Source of the DNA: Pelagomonas calceolata
Lineage: Eukaryota
DNA length: 64,000 nt
Direction: 5' to 3'
NCBI GenBank assembly: GCA_918797485.1
Contig: CAKKNE010000004.1
Location: forward strand, 558,001 to 622,000
Part shown: positions 5,969 through 55,155 of the stretch, piece after piece
How the letters are laid out: each line of letters opens with the position of its first letter
Position numbering within the stretch: position 1 is the stretch's first letter
Position numbers and translations under genes: made by a program
The notes under the pieces: generated by a model
The model's input: only the letters and a program-made list of their open reading frames with translations
What the model was told of the DNA's origin: nothing
Database searches by the model: none

Positions 5969-7638
5969 ATGCTGCGACGCATCGCTGCGCTCATACTCAT
6001 CTGCAGCCATGCCAGTGCACTGCGGCCGACGCGGCGCCAGGCGCTAAAGGGCACGGCAGGCTCCACAGTCATGCTCAATTTTTTACCAGGAGCTGCGCGA
6101 GCCGCCGCGAAGGGCCTCGGTTTGCCTACAAAGGAAACCAACGACGTCGTCAGCACCGTGGACGGCATCCGCCGCAAACGACTGGGCAACTCGGACATCG
6201 CCGTCAGCGAGCTCGCACTTGGGACGCAGCGCTGGGGCGGCGCCGACTTCAATAGTCCGGACGAGGAGTTGTGCCATCAGCTGTTGGATCGGGGCGTGCT
6301 CGAGGGTGGCATCAACCTAATTGACACGGCGGAGCAGTACCCGATCCCCTCGGACCGCTCTAGACCGGAGGGCGCGACGGAGGAGATCATCGGCCGATGG
6401 CTCAAGAAAGGCACCGGCCGACGAAACAAAGTAGTGCTGGCCTCAAAAATCACCGGCGGCCGCAACATCAACAAGCGTAGCATCCGAGAGGACTGCGAGG
6501 GCTCTCTGAAAAGATTAGGTGTGGACACGTTAGATGTCTACTTATTACACTGGCCGGCGCGCTACACGCCGCAAAGCAACTGGGGCGCGCCGCCGCGTCG
6601 AAGCCGTCGACGCCACGCCATCGACGCGACCCCCACGTAGGTCAATCGCTGGAGTACGACTGGGATTTAGGAGCGATCACGGTGCCGTCGGCCGCGAGTT
6701 TCCGGGAAATCGTGAGTGCCATGGGCGAGCTGATCAGAGAGGGTCCGCGCCGGTGCCGCTACAGACAATTTACGGGGGACTGTCGCGTCGATGGCGTACC
6801 GCACAGGCAAAATCAGAGGCTACGGCGCCTGCAACGACAACGCCGTGGGTCTCATGGGTCGCGCGCCAGTGCAGAAGTCATCGCGTCGGCCTCCACGCCG
6901 TCGACGCTCATCGCACACAGGCATGTACGGCGCCGCGCGCGAGCTCGGCGTGCCCGGGCCGCTCTGCATGCAGAACGACTACTCGATCGTGAATAGAAGG
7001 GTCGAGGAGAACGGCCTCTCGGAGGCGTCGTCGCCGGCGATCGCGAACGCTGGATTCATGGCGTACAACGTGCTCGCGGGCGGCATGCTGACGGGCAAGT
7101 ACGGGCTTGCGCCCGGCGACGGCGTCGCGCCCGCGGCCGTCGACGACGGCGACCGCGCCCGGGCCAAGAGGTATGCGGAAGCACCTAGGGGCCGGATGGA
7201 CACGCGGGGCTGGGGCCTGACATTGGGACGATACCGCACGACCGCGATGCGGAGCGCGGCTGCGCAGTACACCAAACTAGCGAAGGAGTACGGAATCAAG
7301 GGCGGTCCCGCGCGGCGTCCTGCTCCAAGGTCTGGACTCACGCCCGACGCCATCGACGCGCCACCGAGTCGCATCCGCGCGCAGGCCTGACCGAGCTGTC
7401 CTTCCGCTTCGTCGCCGGGCGGAAAGCGGTGACGTCGTCGCTCGTCGGCCACACGTCCCTCGCCCAGCTCGACGCGTCCATCGACGCCTACCGGAAGGCG
7501 GCGAAGGGCCCGCTCCCGGACCAGCTTCTGTGGGACATCGACCGCGTGCATCTACAAAATAGGTTGCCGCTCTTCGCGAACGACGAGGCCGGCAAGGATT
7601 GGAGAAATGAGGGCTTCATCGGGGAGCGCATTCCATGA
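5969..7638 (+). CDS. Aldo/keto reductase (Tas-like) with signal peptide; 5 exons
   Basis: AKR motifs LALGT, IDTAEQY, VLASK, LKRLGVDTLDVYLLHWP, GKIRGYG, QNDYS, LAGGMLTGKY. Three ORFs join in frame after removing introns 6585-6640 (GC-AG), 6743-6806, 6858-6920 and 7305-7384. Confidence 0.9.
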
Positions 7639-7869
7639 CGATCGCTTGATACTGCCTTCCCGTACGCCATCGACGCGGCATCGCGGCGATGGCGTGGTGG
7701 GATAGATTACGCCAGTCTGGCTCTACACCACCTCCACGCCATCGAGGCGACTCGCGCTCGCGTGGACGCCACCAGCGGGCGTGTTTGTTTAAGTTATAGG
7801 TCACCTTACAGCAACCTAACAGCGGCACGCGCCCTTACCTCTCGGATCGTTGAGCGCGCTCCACCGAAT

Positions 7870-22271: not shown

Positions 22272-23189
22272 TTACCAGTTCGTCCCCGTATACGTCCCGA
22301 ACGTCACCTCGTCGACCGATAGATGGCCCGTGTCGCCTAAGGACCGCAAGGACACCTTCCCGTCGGGACTGATCGTGACGTGCGTCACGGAGCAGTTCAT
22401 CGTGCAGAGCCGCAGCCACCCTTCTGGAGGTAACTGCAGCGCCCTCAAAGCGAAAAATCTAATAACGTTGGCATGGCACACCAACACGTCGTACTCGTCG
22501 GTCGGCGCGTTCACCGGAGGATAGGCGACCGGGTGGTCCTCGTCGCCATCATCATCGTCGATCTCGTCCCACGGCAGAGCTCGCTTGAAATATTTGCGGA
22601 AGGCGGCTTCAATCCGAGCTCCATCTCTATAGACCGCAGCCGCGTGGTGGACGCCGTCGGGGATCGCGTGGCAGGGCACGCCTTCGTTTAGCTGCGGATC
22701 TCCGGGCAGGCGCGGCACGTTATTGAGTTGGGCGTGGATGAGGTCGGCGGTCTCCACGGCCCTTGCTAGACGAGACGAGTGGACGCCTCGGCACACGGCG
22801 CCGGGCTGACTTAACAATTCAGCGACTCGTTTGCCCGCTTGTACGGCCTGCCGTTTACCTAGAGCGGTGAGGACCCGTCCGGAGTCGTCTCCCGCAGATT
22901 CGTCGTACTGGCCGTGCCGTATCAAGATCAAATGCCTTCTGGGCGCACCGGAAGGTTTTAACAGGGAACGTCTCCTCCCTCGGCTATCAAGTTCCCTATG
23001 GTCCCAGTTGCAGTCCCACTGGGGCCAGGGCACGGCGGGCTGGAAGAGCTGGGCTTCTATCGCAAGATCGGCTACTGCGGTTAAACGCCGTTGGACCGCG
23101 GGGGCGCGGTCCTCTGCTCTCGGGCGTGACGTAGGGAGGACGGCGCAGGCTCCTAGAGGGAGCGCTGCGCGGCGGGCGAGGCGGTGCAT
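22272..23189 (-). CDS. PGAM5: PGAM5-like histidine phosphatase
   Basis: WDCNWD motif, LIRHGQY, SSRLARAVETA, VCHANVIRFF..RALQLPPEGWLR, LGDTGH. Confidence 0.9.
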   Translation of the reverse strand: MHRLARRAALPLGACAVLPTSRPRAEDRAPAVQRRLTAVADLAIEAQLFQPAVPWPQWDCNWDHRELDSRGRRRSLLKPSGAPRRHLILIRHGQYDESAGDDSGRVLTALGKRQAVQAGKRVAELLSQPGAVCRGVHSSRLARAVETADLIHAQLNNVPRLPGDPQLNEGVPCHAIPDGVHHAAAVYRDGARIEAAFRKYFKRALPWDEIDDDDGDEDHPVAYPPVNAPTDEYDVLVCHANVIRFFALRALQLPPEGWLRLCTMNCSVTHVTISPDGKVSLRSLGDTGHLSVDEVTFGTYTGTNW

Positions 23190-23779: not shown

Positions 23780-25979
23780 ATGCCCACCGCCAAGCGCCGA
23801 GATCCAAACGCGAGGCTCGGCATGCCGCCAAAAAGTCAAAACAGGAGTGGAGGCGACATGCGCCGCTTCGTCAAGTCCAAGGACGTCGAGAAGAAGCCCC
23901 AGGCCTGGGCCGTGGGGCTGGACAAGTGGACCTTGTCCTTTTCCAATTCGGCACTTGACGGTGAGTGGAGGCGCCTCGTCGCGGGCCGTTCCAGAGCGCT
24001 GTGGCTCCGATCGCTACTGAGCGCCACCCTATACCAAGCCCTGCGCCACGCGGCGGACACGGCGCAGTTCGGGCCGGCGCCGCAGTGGGTCGTCGCGGTC
24101 CGATTGGTGCTGGCGGTCACCGAAGTGCTGCTGTTCGCCGTGGCCTACTGCGACTTATTACGACCTAGTCAGGCCGCCATCGCGGCGAACGCGTTCTTGT
24201 ACGGCATCGTGGAGCTGGCGTTGGTCGTTGATAGATTGAGGCCGCGCGTCGCTCCCGGGGATTGGCTGCACGTCCGCGACGCAGCGTCCTCGAAGCTGAC
24301 GCCATCGACGCGCCACGGCCTACCTCGCGTCGATGGCGTGGGGGCTGGCGCTCGCGACGCGCGCGCCTCACGCACGAACCACACAGGTCACGTACGGCCT
24401 GGCCTGGTTCATCGTGCCCAAGATGTCCGCTTTACAATTCTTTCCCGCGTGTTTAGGGTCCTGTGCGATTGTCGGCTGGTGGTCCTTGCTTTCTCTTGCG
24501 ACGATGGCTACTCCCCCGGAAGGCGCGAGGTACGGTGTGGGAGGTGATTTATGGAGGTTGCTACGGAGGTGGGCGCCCTTCGCGACACCCGTACGTATCC
24601 AAGAGTGCACGGGCGTCGACTGCGTCCAACGAACACTAGCAGCACTTGAGGAGTCGTCGGTTGTCAGACGAACAAGCTGGCAGGACGCGTCGGCGGGCTT
24701 AGCGTTAGTAGTGCCGGTAGTGGTCCTCTTCAACGTCGTCGCCTACTCGTCCGAGAAGTCCGTCAAGGAGCGGTTCGTGCTCAGAAGTGCGCTCGCCCAC
24801 GAACATCGCCACGACGTCCGCCTGTCATTACTAGGCGACGACGCGTCGCAGATGCTGTCTCGCTTGCAAGATGCGGTGAAGGCGCCTCGATTGAGACCGC
24901 CTGAAAACCGCAATGACAGGTTACTCTTAGCGGCGATACCAGCGGTATTACTTGCAGCATCAGGCTACTTTCCCTCGATCCCGTCCTTCACCGGTTCACT
25001 AGCTTCCTCAGCTTTTGGCGGCCCGGATGCCGCTTGGGCCGCTTTATCTCATGTGTTCGGGCTGAGTTTATTTCTACTCGTTCTGACGAAAAGAGTCAAA
25101 TTCCTACTCCTGACACCTCTCGTAGTAGCAGCTCTCTTCTACTTAGCTGCCCAAACATTGGTGGAGACGGATTCAAGAACAAAACTATTCCGGTGGGCCG
25201 GGAGCGTTGTCCTCGCCGCGTTTGTGCTAGGAGCATTTCGCGTAGCGCGACTCTTCGCGGCACTCCTCCACTTCGCTAGACGAACCTTGTTCCTCTACCC
25301 CCACCTGGAGGAAAATCTCAAGGAACATAGTGACGGGGAGGTCCTGGGCCGCCTTGTCGCGAAAGTCGAGCTGCCAAGGCCAAACAACCCGGGCGCGGTG
25401 CGCGGCGCGTTGGACACGACGACGCCGAACGAGGGCGAGTCCGAACAAAGTCTGTGTTCTTTAGGGTCGTACCGGTCCGAGGAGTCGTCGCAATCTGTGT
25501 GGAAATCAAATTTCGGGCGCCCCACGCCATCGACGCGACGTTGTCGCCGTGACCGCGTCGGTTCGATGGCGTGATTAACCTAACTCACTGGCTGATTTCC
25601 ACACAGGTCGCAATCGATTGGGCCGCTACCCGTGCTCCCGCTGGGATCGCATGATAGAGCCTGCGCTTTTTGTTCGCACGATCCCGGATCTACAAGCTGT
25701 CAAGCGACGCACGCCGTGCCCGTGTGCGGCGCGTGGGCGTCCTGGTACCTATGGAGAGCGGAGCGGGCGAAAAAAATGGATAGGGCGCGGAACGAGGTCT
25801 CGTCTCCCGTTGACGAGGGGCCCTCCCTGAGGCCGTGCTGCGACTTCGCGACGCTGGCGCTTGAACGAAGTGCGCTGCAGCGCGAGAACGCGTCGCTGCG
25901 CGCGCAGATCGCCTCTCTGAGAGCCCGCGAGCGGTCGCCGCCCTCTTCGCCTCCTGAACCTCAGCGGCCGCTCGAGTAA
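23780..25979 (+). CDS. Multi-pass membrane protein with a C-terminal Cys-rich (possible Zn-binding) and coiled-coil tail; 3 exons
   Basis: ORFs 23780.., 24333.. and 25632.. join in frame via introns 24272-24386 and 25487-25606. Many hydrophobic segments; CAFC...C...VCGAW tail. Confidence 0.75.
25495..25606 (+). mobile_element. Introner element (non-autonomous MITE-like DNA transposon forming an intron)
   Basis: Perfect 14-bp TIRs ctgtgtggaaatca (25495-25508) and tgatttccacacag (25593-25606). 8-bp direct repeat gtcgcaat at 25487-25494 and 25607-25614. Confidence 0.92.
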
Positions 25980-26184
25980 GTGGTTGCTGCCGTGTCTAGA
26001 CGTCTAGTCCTCCCCGCCGCGCCTGGCACTTTGAGGTTGGCTCTCTTGCCCAGACTCGGGCCAGAGTCTTGGTCTCGCCGACGTTCTCCGCCCCAGAACG
26101 TTGCCCAGACCCCCTGCAATTTGCTTTTGAGGTTGTCTCGCCGACGCTCTCGTTCCCCAGAAGCTGCCCAAACGCTGCCAAAGA

Positions 26185-27813
26185 ATGAAGACCGTTGCCG
26201 CCATCGCTATCCTCTGCCTCGGCGCCGCCGCCGCCAGGAAGGCGTCGCGCGAGACGGCCTCGGACCGCATCGAGAAGTTGCTGGCCGCCCGGGGCAGCAG
26301 GAAGACGACGCGCGCGAGCCGGCGCTTGGGGAGCCCGAAGCAGATGGTCGACACGGCGCACCCGCTGCTGAAGGCTCGCTGGGAGGCCACCGGCAAGCTT
26401 ACGCTGGCGGATATCGAGGCGGCGGCGGCGGCGCCCGAGTGGCGGACCGAGCGGGCCGTGCGCGGCCGGGACCGCGTCTCGCGCCTCGGGAGCATCAACG
26501 ACGACCGGACCGCCGACATGTGCGCGGCCTACACGGGTTCCGGAGCGGCGTGCTTCGAGGGCGACCTGTCCGAATTGGACGACGACTTCATCGTGTCGCT
26601 CGAGCCGGGCGCCTGCGCCACGTGCGGCTACGGCGAAGATGCGCCCTCGGGCGGCCAGGACGATTGGTCAGACTGCATCACGTGCGCCAACGCCGGGGAA
26701 GAAATCATTGTCCTCTTCGACGACTGCACGGGCACCTGCGTCGACGCGGCCGGCAAGGCGTTCTGGGAAGGGCTGGGCTACGCGGACCTGGACGACTCGG
26801 CGTGCGAGGCGACGCGGGCGTGCTACGACGATGACGGCTTCGTCGACTCGCTGTCGCTCGGCGGCACGAACGCGAAGTACGCCGGCGACGTTGGGAGCTA
26901 CTCGTACTCGTACGACGACGACGGCGGCAGTGACGACGACGGCTTCGCCTGCTTGGATGACTGCAGCTTTACCAACGACGACGACGAGGTGGGCTGGGAC
27001 TGCGCCGGCTACAGGGACATCGCCAGCTCGTGCCTGGCGGACTGCGACGCGTCGCTGGCGAACGAATTCGCGTTCCACTGCGCAGAGATGCTTATCAAGA
27101 CATTGTGCTATGCCGAAAAGACGGCCGCGAAGACCTGCGCCTGCGCCGAGTTAAACGTTTGCGACGACAGCGGCATCACCGGTTACAGCCTGCCCAGCGA
27201 CGCGGTCAACCACGGCGCGACGAACGGGGGCTGGTGCTCCGGGGGCGTGGACGACTGCAGCATGGACGACGATCCCGAGTTCGACGCCGCGGCCTGCTGG
27301 GGCCTCTGCGCGCTCAAGTACCCCGACTCGCTCGTCGCGATCGACCTCAACGAAGGTTCCTGCTGCTGCCAGGATAAGTGCGAATGCATGGCCAATATCG
27401 AAGACGGGAATGAGGTATACACCGACGCCTCGATCACGACGCTCCCCGCCGATTGCGGCGGCGACGACGACGACGACGTCGGTCCGCTCCCCGCTACCTG
27501 CGCGGACGGCGCGGCCAACAGCGAGTTCATCTGGGAATGCGGGGGCGGTCCCGTCTACCAGCAGGGCTGCGTCGACGAGTGGCACGCCTACGTCGAATGC
27601 AAGTGGAACTATTTCCCGGCGATCGTCGACGACACCTATTTCAACGGCCCGTCGTGCTCCCTGTCGTGCGCCGATGCCCTGTCGTCGCCGGCGCCGGCGC
27701 CGGCGCCGGCGCCGCGGCCCGCGAACGCCACCGCGCTCGGGTCCGACGCGGCGGCGGCGCGCGGCCCGCTCCTCGCCACCGCCGTCCTCGGCGCCGCGGC
27801 CGCGGCGCTCTAG
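26185..27813 (+). CDS. Cys/Asp-rich secreted, probably GPI-anchored surface protein
   Basis: Signal MKTVAAIAILCLGAAAA; many Cys; SYSYSY motif; PAPAPAP stalk; hydrophobic C-terminus SDAAAARGPLLATAVLGAAAAAL. Confidence 0.85.
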   Translation: MKTVAAIAILCLGAAAARKASRETASDRIEKLLAARGSRKTTRASRRLGSPKQMVDTAHPLLKARWEATGKLTLADIEAAAAAPEWRTERAVRGRDRVSRLGSINDDRTADMCAAYTGSGAACFEGDLSELDDDFIVSLEPGACATCGYGEDAPSGGQDDWSDCITCANAGEEIIVLFDDCTGTCVDAAGKAFWEGLGYADLDDSACEATRACYDDDGFVDSLSLGGTNAKYAGDVGSYSYSYDDDGGSDDDGFACLDDCSFTNDDDEVGWDCAGYRDIASSCLADCDASLANEFAFHCAEMLIKTLCYAEKTAAKTCACAELNVCDDSGITGYSLPSDAVNHGATNGGWCSGGVDDCSMDDDPEFDAAACWGLCALKYPDSLVAIDLNEGSCCCQDKCECMANIEDGNEVYTDASITTLPADCGGDDDDDVGPLPATCADGAANSEFIWECGGGPVYQQGCVDEWHAYVECKWNYFPAIVDDTYFNGPSCSLSCADALSSPAPAPAPAPRPANATALGSDAAAARGPLLATAVLGAAAAAL

Positions 27814-27973: not shown

Positions 27974-28311
27974 TCGTACTACTTCACGTCCGCCACGACC
28001 TCCGTGGCGCGGGATGGAGTTTTGAGTTTGTCGGCGTATGCCTATACGCTATCCATGCGCAATTGCGGAGGATTTATATTGTTACGGTGCTAGAACTAGT
28101 GGGCGGAGCCTTGCGGAGGATTGACCAGTAATAAACTCTCTAGAGTTTGCAGCAGATTTGCAGCTATGCGAGACTGCCAGAGTGAAGTGCTTTGCGAGCC
28201 GTAGACGCTGCCCAAACAAGGCCAGGTGGAATATTTCCCAGTCCGAGCCACTGAGCAGTTTTCTGGGACACTACGCTGCCGGGGAAATCCGGAGCTACAC
28301 ACTCTACGCAG

Positions 28312-29034
28312 ATGAAGACCGCCGCCGTCACCCTTGCCCTCTGCCTCAGTGTCGCCACTGGCGACGACAGGTGCATCGGCGGTTGGAAGACTGGCGACGG
28401 CCAGGGGCCACTGGGGTCGGCATATGAGATGTCCTTAGGGACTGCCGATAGCCGCGAGGCGTGCATCGATGCCGTACAAGCTCTCAACACCGGCGCCAAC
28501 GCTGCAACCTACTCAACCGATGGCACCAAGGCGTGCTATGTGGAGTACGGCCAGACGACTGTTGATACCAGTTCGTATAGTTCGGACTATGAGAACTGCC
28601 TCCTCACGGCGCCGGCGACGCCGAGCCGCGACCTCGACGGCGACGGCGCCGAGGACGTCGCGCCCGAGGGCTCCTGCTGCATCGTCCAGTACGGCGTCGG
28701 CTTCGATACTCAGTGTGGCAGTACCCTGGCGGAGGTCACGGCGAGCAATTGCTGCCCGAGCCCCTTCGTCGCCCGCTACCATCTCGGGGCCAGCGGCGAA
28801 GAGACGACAAACTACGACTGCGTCTCCTTCATCAGCAAGGAGGACTGCATCACCTACGGACAGACTTGGAGCGGGGGCGACGACGACCCGATTGGCCTCG
28901 GCCAGATCGGGGGCTGCCCCCACTCCGCCGCGGCGCCCGCGTACGAAGCAGCGCTCAAGGAGTCCGATTCCGCGCCCGCGTCGGGCCCGGCGCTCCTCGC
29001 CACCGTCCTCGCGGCCGCGGCCGCGGCGCTCTGA
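28312..29034 (+). CDS. Cys-rich secreted, probably GPI-anchored protein (possible PAN/apple-like module)
   Basis: Signal MKTAAVTLALCLSVATG; C-terminus SDSAPASGPALLATVLAAAAAAL. Confidence 0.85.
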   Translation: MKTAAVTLALCLSVATGDDRCIGGWKTGDGQGPLGSAYEMSLGTADSREACIDAVQALNTGANAATYSTDGTKACYVEYGQTTVDTSSYSSDYENCLLTAPATPSRDLDGDGAEDVAPEGSCCIVQYGVGFDTQCGSTLAEVTASNCCPSPFVARYHLGASGEETTNYDCVSFISKEDCITYGQTWSGGDDDPIGLGQIGGCPHSAAAPAYEAALKESDSAPASGPALLATVLAAAAAAL

Positions 29035-44054: not shown

Positions 44055-44257
44055 CAGCATTTTAGTTTTTGCGGCTCTACGGCTTTACGGCTGCTTAGGC
44101 TGCTCATAACGCCGCAGCGGGCTGCCTCGGATCGCTGCGGACGCTACTGACCACTTGTGCGCAGCCCAGCTCGCTCACAGCCCCTGGGGGCAGCACTCTC
44201 AAAAAGAGATCCACCAGCACGCCATCGACGCCATCGACGCGACACGCGACCGCAGCC

Positions 44258-47439: not shown

Positions 47440-48957
47440 TTAAGATGGAAACTCGCCGCCGCCTCCCTCGCGCGGCGGCGTCAGCAACGCGCCAGTCGGC
47501 CGCAGCGCCCTAGGAGGAGGCGATCCGCGCAGCGGCGAGGGCGTCGGCCGTTTGCCGACGACGGACGGCGCCGCGATGCCTGGGGCCGCCAACGTATTCA
47601 CGGGCGACACGTCGACGAGCTCGAAGATGCCGCGCGACCGCGACCGCCGCCGGTAGAAGAGGAAGCTGACGATAAAGACAGCAAGAAGGACGCACGTGAC
47701 GACGACGGCCACGGCCGCGGCGGTCGCGACCTTGGCGTCGCTCGTCGACGAAGAGCTTTTATCAGAGGAGGTCCCTCGTCGGCCCTCGATGAAGCCGAGC
47801 GCGGTCTCGATCTCGTCGGCGCGGCCGCAGACGTGGCCAGCTTTTACTGTACACTCGACGGTTTCTCTGGAGGCGCCGACGAACGTGGAACACGACACGT
47901 CTCCATTTCCGTAGGCGTTGGTCGCGACGGGCGCGGCGGGCCCGCCGTGGTGGAGGCTCCACGCCCGCGTCACGTTGCGCGCGGCCGTGTAGTACCTGCG
48001 GTGCGTCGGACGGTGTGAGGACTCTGAGCGACGGCGTGGGGCTGGGGCTGCTCTGTGCTAGTGTGGTGTCCTGCTCGATGGCGTGGATGTTCACAAGTAC
48101 CACCAGTACGCCAACAACCGCCCTCCACGCCATCGACGCGGCTCATTGTCAGCAAGGACACGGGACACATACCAGCCGCGCTCGTCGTCCTCGTCTACGG
48201 TCGCGAGCGCGACGCCGGGGCCCGGCGCGTCCTCGCTCGCCTCGTACGGAATCGTCGTGTCGGAGAGGCCCCAGATCCCGAGCAGGTGGGCGGAGGACGA
48301 GGGCGGCCGCCAGAAGCCGGGGTGAGGCGCCCCCACGATCGACACGCCGCCGGCGAAGAGCCCTGCACTTCTTGAATCAGCTAGCGCCTCGTAGACCATC
48401 ATGGCCCCGTTCGAGCAGCCCGCGACCCACACCTGCTCCAGGTCCACGCACAGCATCTTCTCGACCGCTTCGAGCGCATCTAACAAGACTCGCGTCGAGT
48501 CCTCGCACGTCGTCCACCAGCAGCCGTCCGAGTTTTCGCACTCGCAGGTCTCGGCATAATAGGAGCAGTAGTCTGTACTACCAGGCTTGCAGGTGGCGCC
48601 GCGCGGCCCTGGACTTGAACTGCTGCCTCCGGCGTTCCAGCTCTGCCAGTTTTCCGGCCCGCTGCCTTCCAGCGCTGCCGTAGCGATGCCTTTTTTCCTT
48701 GCTGTTGATGCGAAGGCGTCGCCCTCGGACGCGTCGCCGCCCCAGCCGTGCATGTATAGAATAAGGGGCACTGGCGTTTCGTAGTCGTAGTCTTGTGGCA
48801 GCGTCAAGATGTGGTTGTGGCCGTCTAGCGCGAGCGGTAATGACTCCATCCCCACATATTCGAGGATGTCCGTGCTCTCGACGCCGCAGCCCGAGCTCAC
48901 GGCGCCGGCGGCCACGCGCGCAACCGCGGCGACAGCGAGGAGCCGCCGGCATGCCAT
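47440..48957 (-). CDS. Alpha/beta hydrolase (PHB-depolymerase/LpqC-like esterase) with signal peptide and C-terminal TM; 2 exons
   Basis: PLILYMHGWG; WNAG; VAGCSNGAMM (GxSxG). GT-AG intron 47996-48172 joins to the ...GHVC...TM exon. Confidence 0.85.
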
Positions 48958-55027: not shown

Positions 55028-55155
55028 GGTACTTACAAATATCCGCGTCGATGGCGTCGATGGCGTCGAGGCGCTCCTTGCGTCCGTCGGGACGACCGAG
55101 GGCCCGGCACGCCATCGAGGCGCCGTCCCACGCGGCGGCGGCTCACAGAATGGAG

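Follow-up and report, generated by a model that had tools for sequence, protein, structure and literature searches.

A spliced 120-nt intron in Pelagomonas calceolata that very probably arose by insertion of an introner element, probably shortened later by internal deletion

A gene in the 64-kb stretch of Pelagomonas calceolata DNA that we analyzed (the window) carries a 120-nt intron that is spliced in RNA, and we propose that this intron is made up of a duplicated 8-bp target and a 112-bp element, a MITE that would have been inserted by a transposase and shortened by internal loss. We put the probability of this reading at about 0.93. The element and its flanking repeats, at 25487..25614, had been noted in a preliminary description made from the sequence alone, and the positions it gave for the target site duplication (TSD) and the terminal inverted repeats (TIRs), the 112-bp length, the stop at 25574, and the in-frame removal of 25487-25606 were all correct. 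The gene and the element are laid out as follows.

23780..24271, plus strand: coding exon 1, its ATG inferred from homologues
24272..24386, plus strand: older intron, 115 nt, its joint present in the same four of four runs as that of the element intron
24387..25486, plus strand: coding exon 2, from RNA joints and the spliced frame
25487..25606, plus strand: spliceosomal intron, 120 nt, GT..AG, phase 2, made of the left TSD copy and the element; RNA joint 25486^25607
25487..25494, plus strand: left TSD copy (8 bp, GTCGCAAT), its first two bases the GT donor
25495..25508, plus strand: left TIR, a perfect 14 bp in this copy against 15 bp in most of the family
25523..25573, no strand: inner hairpin whose 23-nt arms are 83% complementary; the ~203-bp master has two such motif-pair units, of which this is one
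25593..25606, plus strand: right TIR, its last two bases the AG acceptor
25607..25614, plus strand: right TSD copy (GTCGCAAT), which stays in the mRNA and opens exon 3
25607..25979, plus strand: coding exon 3, a conserved one, at 94-98% in element-free homologues and 57% in Aureococcus-group proteins (by cluster names)
25611..25620, no strand: perfect palindrome of 10 bp that shares bases with the right TSD, within the stretch of two extra codons (background chance ~3%; a weak signal)

Between its perfect 14-bp TIRs the element is 112 bp long and non-coding, and a generic scan of the 64-kb window returned it as the sole structure with an 8-bp TSD and TIRs of at least 10 bp. None of 30 first-order Markov controls combined a perfect 14-bp TIR with an 8-bp repeat, and 2 of 30 had such a repeat with a TIR of at least 10 bp and one mismatch. 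The intron folds far better than shuffled versions of itself (z = -6.3; 0/200), and the inner hairpin at 25523..25573 may have a putative role as a subterminal transposase-binding repeat. The observation of a TSD/TIR element at this position is thereby confirmed.

The spliced joint that the preliminary description had proposed to look for in RNA-seq data, 25486^25607 (GT..AG), was present in four of four runs (X23, X24, X9, and X14, from at most three samples), which bears out its proposal that the GT donor comes from the TSD and the AG acceptor from the end of the TIR. In X23, 24 reads with 15 starts crossed the joint, and in X24, 23 reads with 18 starts, while X9 and X14, which are only presumed to be RNA, each contributed one contig. 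All junction reads from X23 and X24 had the first mate on the minus strand, which suggests that the RNA derives from the plus strand. A further 15 short-overhang reads in X23 had the upstream exon as a loose end, which brings the spliced-type reads to at least 39 against a flank depth of ~50, and thus the majority of host-gene transcripts in this run appear, by this rough estimate, to be spliced at the element intron. These junction reads were mapped at 99% likeness; mapping at 90% was flooded by other family copies, and the joint was not among the 15 joints then listed. Poly(A) reads of other family copies covered 25495-25606 on both strands at ~700-800-fold depth, versus ~60 for the gene, which indicates that transcripts retain certain copies or that these sit in UTRs or in antisense position.

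Without splicing, the reading frame meets a stop at 25574; with 25487-25606 removed, it stays open as far as the stop codon at 25977-25979. The fully spliced frame, which starts at ATG 23780, has 654 codons and encodes a hydrophobic protein, and full-length homologues of 652 aa share their start position with ATG 23780. Searched against Pfam, the host exons gave no family above the cut-off, and the closest named relative of the protein is a hypothetical protein of Aureococcus anophagefferens (50%). This distance and a GC content near 63% are in keeping with P. calceolata. An open reading frame beginning at 24333 had earlier been described as fused by splicing to one beginning at 25632; the in-frame joining holds, but 24333 is not the start of the gene, as ATG 24333 lies inside the intron at 24272-24386. 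Divergent from the host gene is a histidine phosphatase superfamily gene on the minus strand at 22272-23189 (PF00300, E = 1.4e-16).

Copies of the element were sampled by scanning metagenomes with its 19-bp left end, which gave at least 120 loci. TIR pairing over the listed loci yielded 127 elements, or 121 distinct ones after removal of 6 duplicates, with 28 unpaired ends and a few ends with short flanks excluded. The element thus belongs to a high-copy dispersed family, with at least 121 distinct copies at unrelated sites among the matches listed, and the search for further TIR pairs with 8-bp duplications that had been suggested for the genome succeeded in metagenomes. DNA-contig depth over the element peaks at ~1,900 times (X2) and ~1,600 times (X3) that of the flank, a ratio that is not a copy number, and X2 and X3 are possibly the window's own source. 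At seven loci (L135, L139, L140, L177, L187, L188, and L194) two or three family copies lie within a few kilobases, with three within 1.6 kb at L139.

Target duplications of 8 bp characterize the whole family. When TSD lengths from 4 to 12 were compared over 94 listed copies, flank identity averaged 0.755 at 8 bp versus 0.21-0.33 at the other lengths, and exact duplications numbered 28 of 94 at 8 bp versus 0-1 elsewhere. At least seven of eight bases matched in 51 of these 94 copies, whereas 1000 shuffled pairings gave a mean of 1.0 and a maximum of 5. Over all 121 listed copies, the TSD matched at 8/8 in 36, at 7/8 in 29, at 6/8 in 17, and at 5/8 or less in 39. On one of the two strands, the TSD began with GT or GC in all 36 listed copies with perfect TSDs, in all 65 with at least 7/8, and in 81 of 82 with at least 6/8, compared with 31% of random 8-mers; the 65 well-preserved copies comprised 44 GT and 21 GC donors.

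For 64 of the 82 copies there was enough flank for a coding test, which used a codon model from 30 long open reading frames and a threshold that we set ourselves. Removal of one TSD copy and the element left a coding-like open frame in 53 of these 64 listed copies, and 11 failed. Among the 38 coding listed copies with a single donor strand, the donor lay on the coding strand in 37. Element orientations were nearly equal among the single-donor listed copies (31 versus 30), and either orientation is usable because both TIRs, each read along its own strand, finish with AG. The element is accordingly supported as an introner whose donor is co-opted from the TSD and whose acceptor is carried by the TIR.

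The prevalence of GT and GC at the start of the TSD could have two sources: selection for splicing, or a preference of the transposase for palindromic GT..AC targets of the hobo or P type. Some target preference is possible by analogy with these systems, although we lean against the stronger view that it largely accounts for the bias. Among the 65 listed copies, GY..RC was found at both ends in 17, versus ~9% expected (p = 7e-5), a pattern resembling the target motifs of hobo (GTNCGNAC) and P (GTCCGGAC) (PMC3276498). An A at TSD position 7 was also in excess (21 of 65 listed copies versus 18%; p = 0.004), but this could come from codon or phase structure. Similarly, GY was kept in 10 of the 11 copies that failed the coding test, yet failure of that test does not equate to an intergenic site, given UTR introns and nearby exon ends. 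The genome is moreover gene-dense, with nearly all survivors genic, and the agreement of donor and coding strand in 37 of 38 copies is what selection predicts. If a GY..RC preference does exist, the AG-ended TIRs would pre-adapt the family to making introns in either orientation.

The window element had been described as an intact 112-bp transposon, and comparison with the family argues otherwise. Full-length listed copies are 199-203 bp long and share their ends but have one of two interiors; a crude pattern placed 27 and 52 of the 121 listed copies in these two types and left 42 unassigned. Aligned with six 199-203-bp copies of the second type, the window element has identities at 99-108 of its 112 positions and 87-91 gap positions, and it lacks one ~58-bp hairpin unit and one ~33-bp segment of the full-length copies. 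Further differences from most of the family are found at 25592, 25546, and 25562. The base at 25592 differs in ~97% of depth, so the TIR that is usually 15 bp in the family is 14 bp here. Judged from these alignments, the 112-bp element is a ~203-bp master from which ~91 bp would have been deleted internally.

Alternatively, the 112-bp form could itself be the mobile unit, recently inserted and still mobile, as the preliminary description had entertained; we consider this quite unlikely. Its perfect TSD and TIRs set it apart, as the two occur together in only 19 of 106 well-paired listed copies, and the site is polymorphic. One other copy (L182) has the same length and layout and is identical at 99 of 112 positions, so short forms may have moved. 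Set against this, no identical copy of the element, and no identical pair of any kind, occurred among the 121 listed copies; the exact interior at 25540-25605 was at single-copy depth (18.7 versus 16.6); longer interiors exist at the same site in two homologues (P0001 and P0023); and no transposase was found among the fetched loci. Perfect ends are therefore no proof of an intact or mobile element.

Our preferred reading, insertion of a longer element followed by internal loss, is illustrated by other alleles of the host gene. Of 68 proteins recovered, 22 are close homologues that span the site, and 8 of these (P0001, P0017-P0020, P0023, P0025, and P0027) read into the element while 14 are without it; these are predicted proteins, some possibly transcript-derived. 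At this protein level the insertion is polymorphic among alleles, in keeping with the earlier suggestion of a recent insertion whose presence and absence could be compared among strains. One homologue without the element, P0002, has its start within unspliced intron 1 on a contig of 4,640 nt and therefore likely represents genomic DNA that lacks the element intron. In X2, the left-junction contig was at flank-level depth (586 versus 599), and no empty allele is thus evident there.

The interiors of the 8 element-bearing alleles are of at least five different kinds. P0001 has both hairpin units along with the junction that is private to the window, the 3' segment is preserved in P0023, and both homologues thus hold, at the same site, segments absent from the window copy. 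This suggests a full-length insertion followed by allele-by-allele erosion, although the interior variants could partly be assembly chimeras.

Presence and absence by itself gives no direction, and one could instead suppose an ancestral intron that was lost in some alleles, with repeats that arose by chance or were acquired later. Intron 1 also seems to be missing from some long-contig homologues, which would fit such losses. This explanation was already disfavoured, however, and we regard it as highly improbable. It does not sit well with a dispersed family that has site-specific 8-bp duplications, and a sister group at 79% identity reads through both intron positions on contigs of up to 73 kb. 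In addition, a precise loss would leave behind the residues of the window's spliced form, and 14 of 14 element-free alleles lack them.

Those residues bear on the claim that the intron is perfectly excised. The window's spliced form has four residues (SQSI) between EES and GPL, where each of the 14 element-free alleles has two (HD, HE, RD, or RE), so that the spliced window protein is 2 aa longer than any of them. Excision is perfect with respect to the immediate target, by construction, but not with respect to these shorter alleles. Since removal of the element and one TSD copy restores the immediate target exactly, the target was already six bases off the common allele; SQSI occurs in 0 of the 68 proteins, and the exact pre-insertion allele is thus unobserved among them. 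The palindrome at 25611-25620 is what a footprint of an earlier excision might look like, a weak indication. Palindromic targets as a family trait were considered and rejected, as a palindrome of at least 10 bp was present at 2 of 63 empty sites versus 3% background.

One can combine these elements into a fuller scenario, in which the transposase prefers palindromic GY..RC targets and the site records a full cycle of excision with a two-codon footprint, reinsertion, and an intron that is now segregating and shrinking. We hold this combination to be unlikely. Were it true, intron birth, erosion, and target choice would be measurable from metagenomes of a very abundant ocean alga.

The older intron at 24272-24386 likely is a decayed member of the same introner family, judging from its similarity to family copies (local score 57 versus 25-38 for 30 shuffles). 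It retains the core hairpin and the terminal 8 bases of the right TIR, and neither its TSD nor its left TIR is clear. In other alleles (P0002 and P0019) this intron is longer, and several of the full-length homologues, on contigs of 3.8-12 kb, seemingly lack it.

The 9-bp core of the element hairpin occurs 21 times in the window, compared with a mean of 2.6 and a maximum of 7 in 30 third-order Markov controls. It is found at 6614-7750, 13422, 35165, 44218, 48076-48140, 53571, 55045-55126, and 55820. Several of these cores immediately precede CACAG-like ends and are likely old introns. Those at 44218 and 53571 come shortly before ATGs, and promoters or UTRs may thus also contain decayed copies or the motif. 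In the interval from the host gene to the following open reading frame, 26030-26173 holds degenerate direct repeats (39 nt at a spacing of 63 and 14 nt at a spacing of 96) and a 17-nt inverted repeat. The open reading frames at 26185-27813 and 28255-29034 are rich in cysteine and aspartate with hydrophobic N- and C-termini, like surface-anchored proteins; the former had no match in Pfam.

With respect to mechanism, a cut-and-paste DNA transposase acting in trans likely inserts a ~203-bp MITE with an 8-bp target duplication, and the inserted MITE likely loses ~91 bp internally at a later time. GT or GC at the start of the target on the coding strand, together with AG at the end of the TIR, would then make an intron in either orientation. 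Coding insertions would survive mainly through being spliced, and erosion after insertion would be tolerated because splicing needs only the ends.

The search for a transposase gene with the same TIRs, which the preliminary description had recommended, returned neither an autonomous partner nor a long TIR-bounded element among the fetched metagenome loci. Two candidate 2.7-kb autonomous elements (L140 and L199) each proved to be two short elements around host genes. PF05699 had 0 matches among the listed rows of a P. calceolata annotation table (PMC9481584). The 14-bp TIR gave 120 single matches in viral contigs, and 0 of 124 loci checked contained either a second TIR to form a pair or the core motif; the 19-bp end gave 0 viral and 4 prokaryotic matches, about chance level by our own estimate. 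These searches thus gave no sign of virus carriage.

The ends of hAT and P elements usually start with CA or TA; the TIRs of this family, unlike that consensus, begin with CTG at both ends. The 8-bp TSD had been taken as a sign of hAT, with which it does fit, but it does not single out hAT, as P elements also leave 8-bp TSDs (PMC3276498). Both hAT (hobo) and P-element MITEs share with this family the 8-bp TSD and the palindromic GT..AC target motifs. A hAT origin is plausible by analogy, a RepBase hAT match being listed for the published family that matches ours, and transposition would then be carried out by a hAT-like enzyme.

The mechanism is already known as the published pelagophyte introner design, and TIR introners have been known for P. 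calceolata itself. In another pelagophyte, Aureococcus anophagefferens, the introners were reportedly characterized by Huff et al. in 2016 as short non-autonomous elements. Likened by design, they have the same layout as here, with a co-opted 5' site and a carried 3' site, as listed for A. anophagefferens fam1 (PMC12130899). An introner of Aureococcus sp. has an 8-bp TSD like ours, but it brings both of its splice sites with it and lengthens the transcript by 12 bp (PMC9860276), and the same source, Gozashti 2022, gives a general description of this introner design. Among the titles and abstract starts surveyed, there was no paper whose main subject was this family's polymorphism, erosion, or target bias. 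What our analysis adds is modest: a case checked with RNA, family-wide TSD statistics, and presence or absence at one site. The family lends itself to testing whether target preference or selection shapes the gain of introns.

The rows of Gozashti et al. 2025 (PMC12130899) list 11 introner families for P. calceolata. The row for fam2 describes a TIR DNA element of 202 bp with a 13-bp TIR and 340 copies, assigned to "co-opt 5' carry 3'", with donors gt:281 gc:42 and the class hAT from a RepBase match. Full-length copies here are 199-203 bp with TIRs of 14-15 bp, the donors of 65 listed copies are 44 GT to 21 GC, and the window copy would be a 112-bp deletion derivative of an element of such length; the comparison is one of features, and the fam2 row gives no TSD length. 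The rows for fam1, fam3, and fam39 also partly fit. Matched in this way by features and not by consensus sequence, our family is likely P. calceolata fam2. In the sections consulted, Guerin et al. 2022 (PMC9481584) report 956 putative P. calceolata IEs with GT/GC donors, an AG acceptor, and a conserved TIR, and these sections hold no analysis of TSDs, orientation, or polymorphism. The intron lengths reported there peak at ~210 bp, which matches the 203 + 8 bp of the full-length element and its target duplication in our study.
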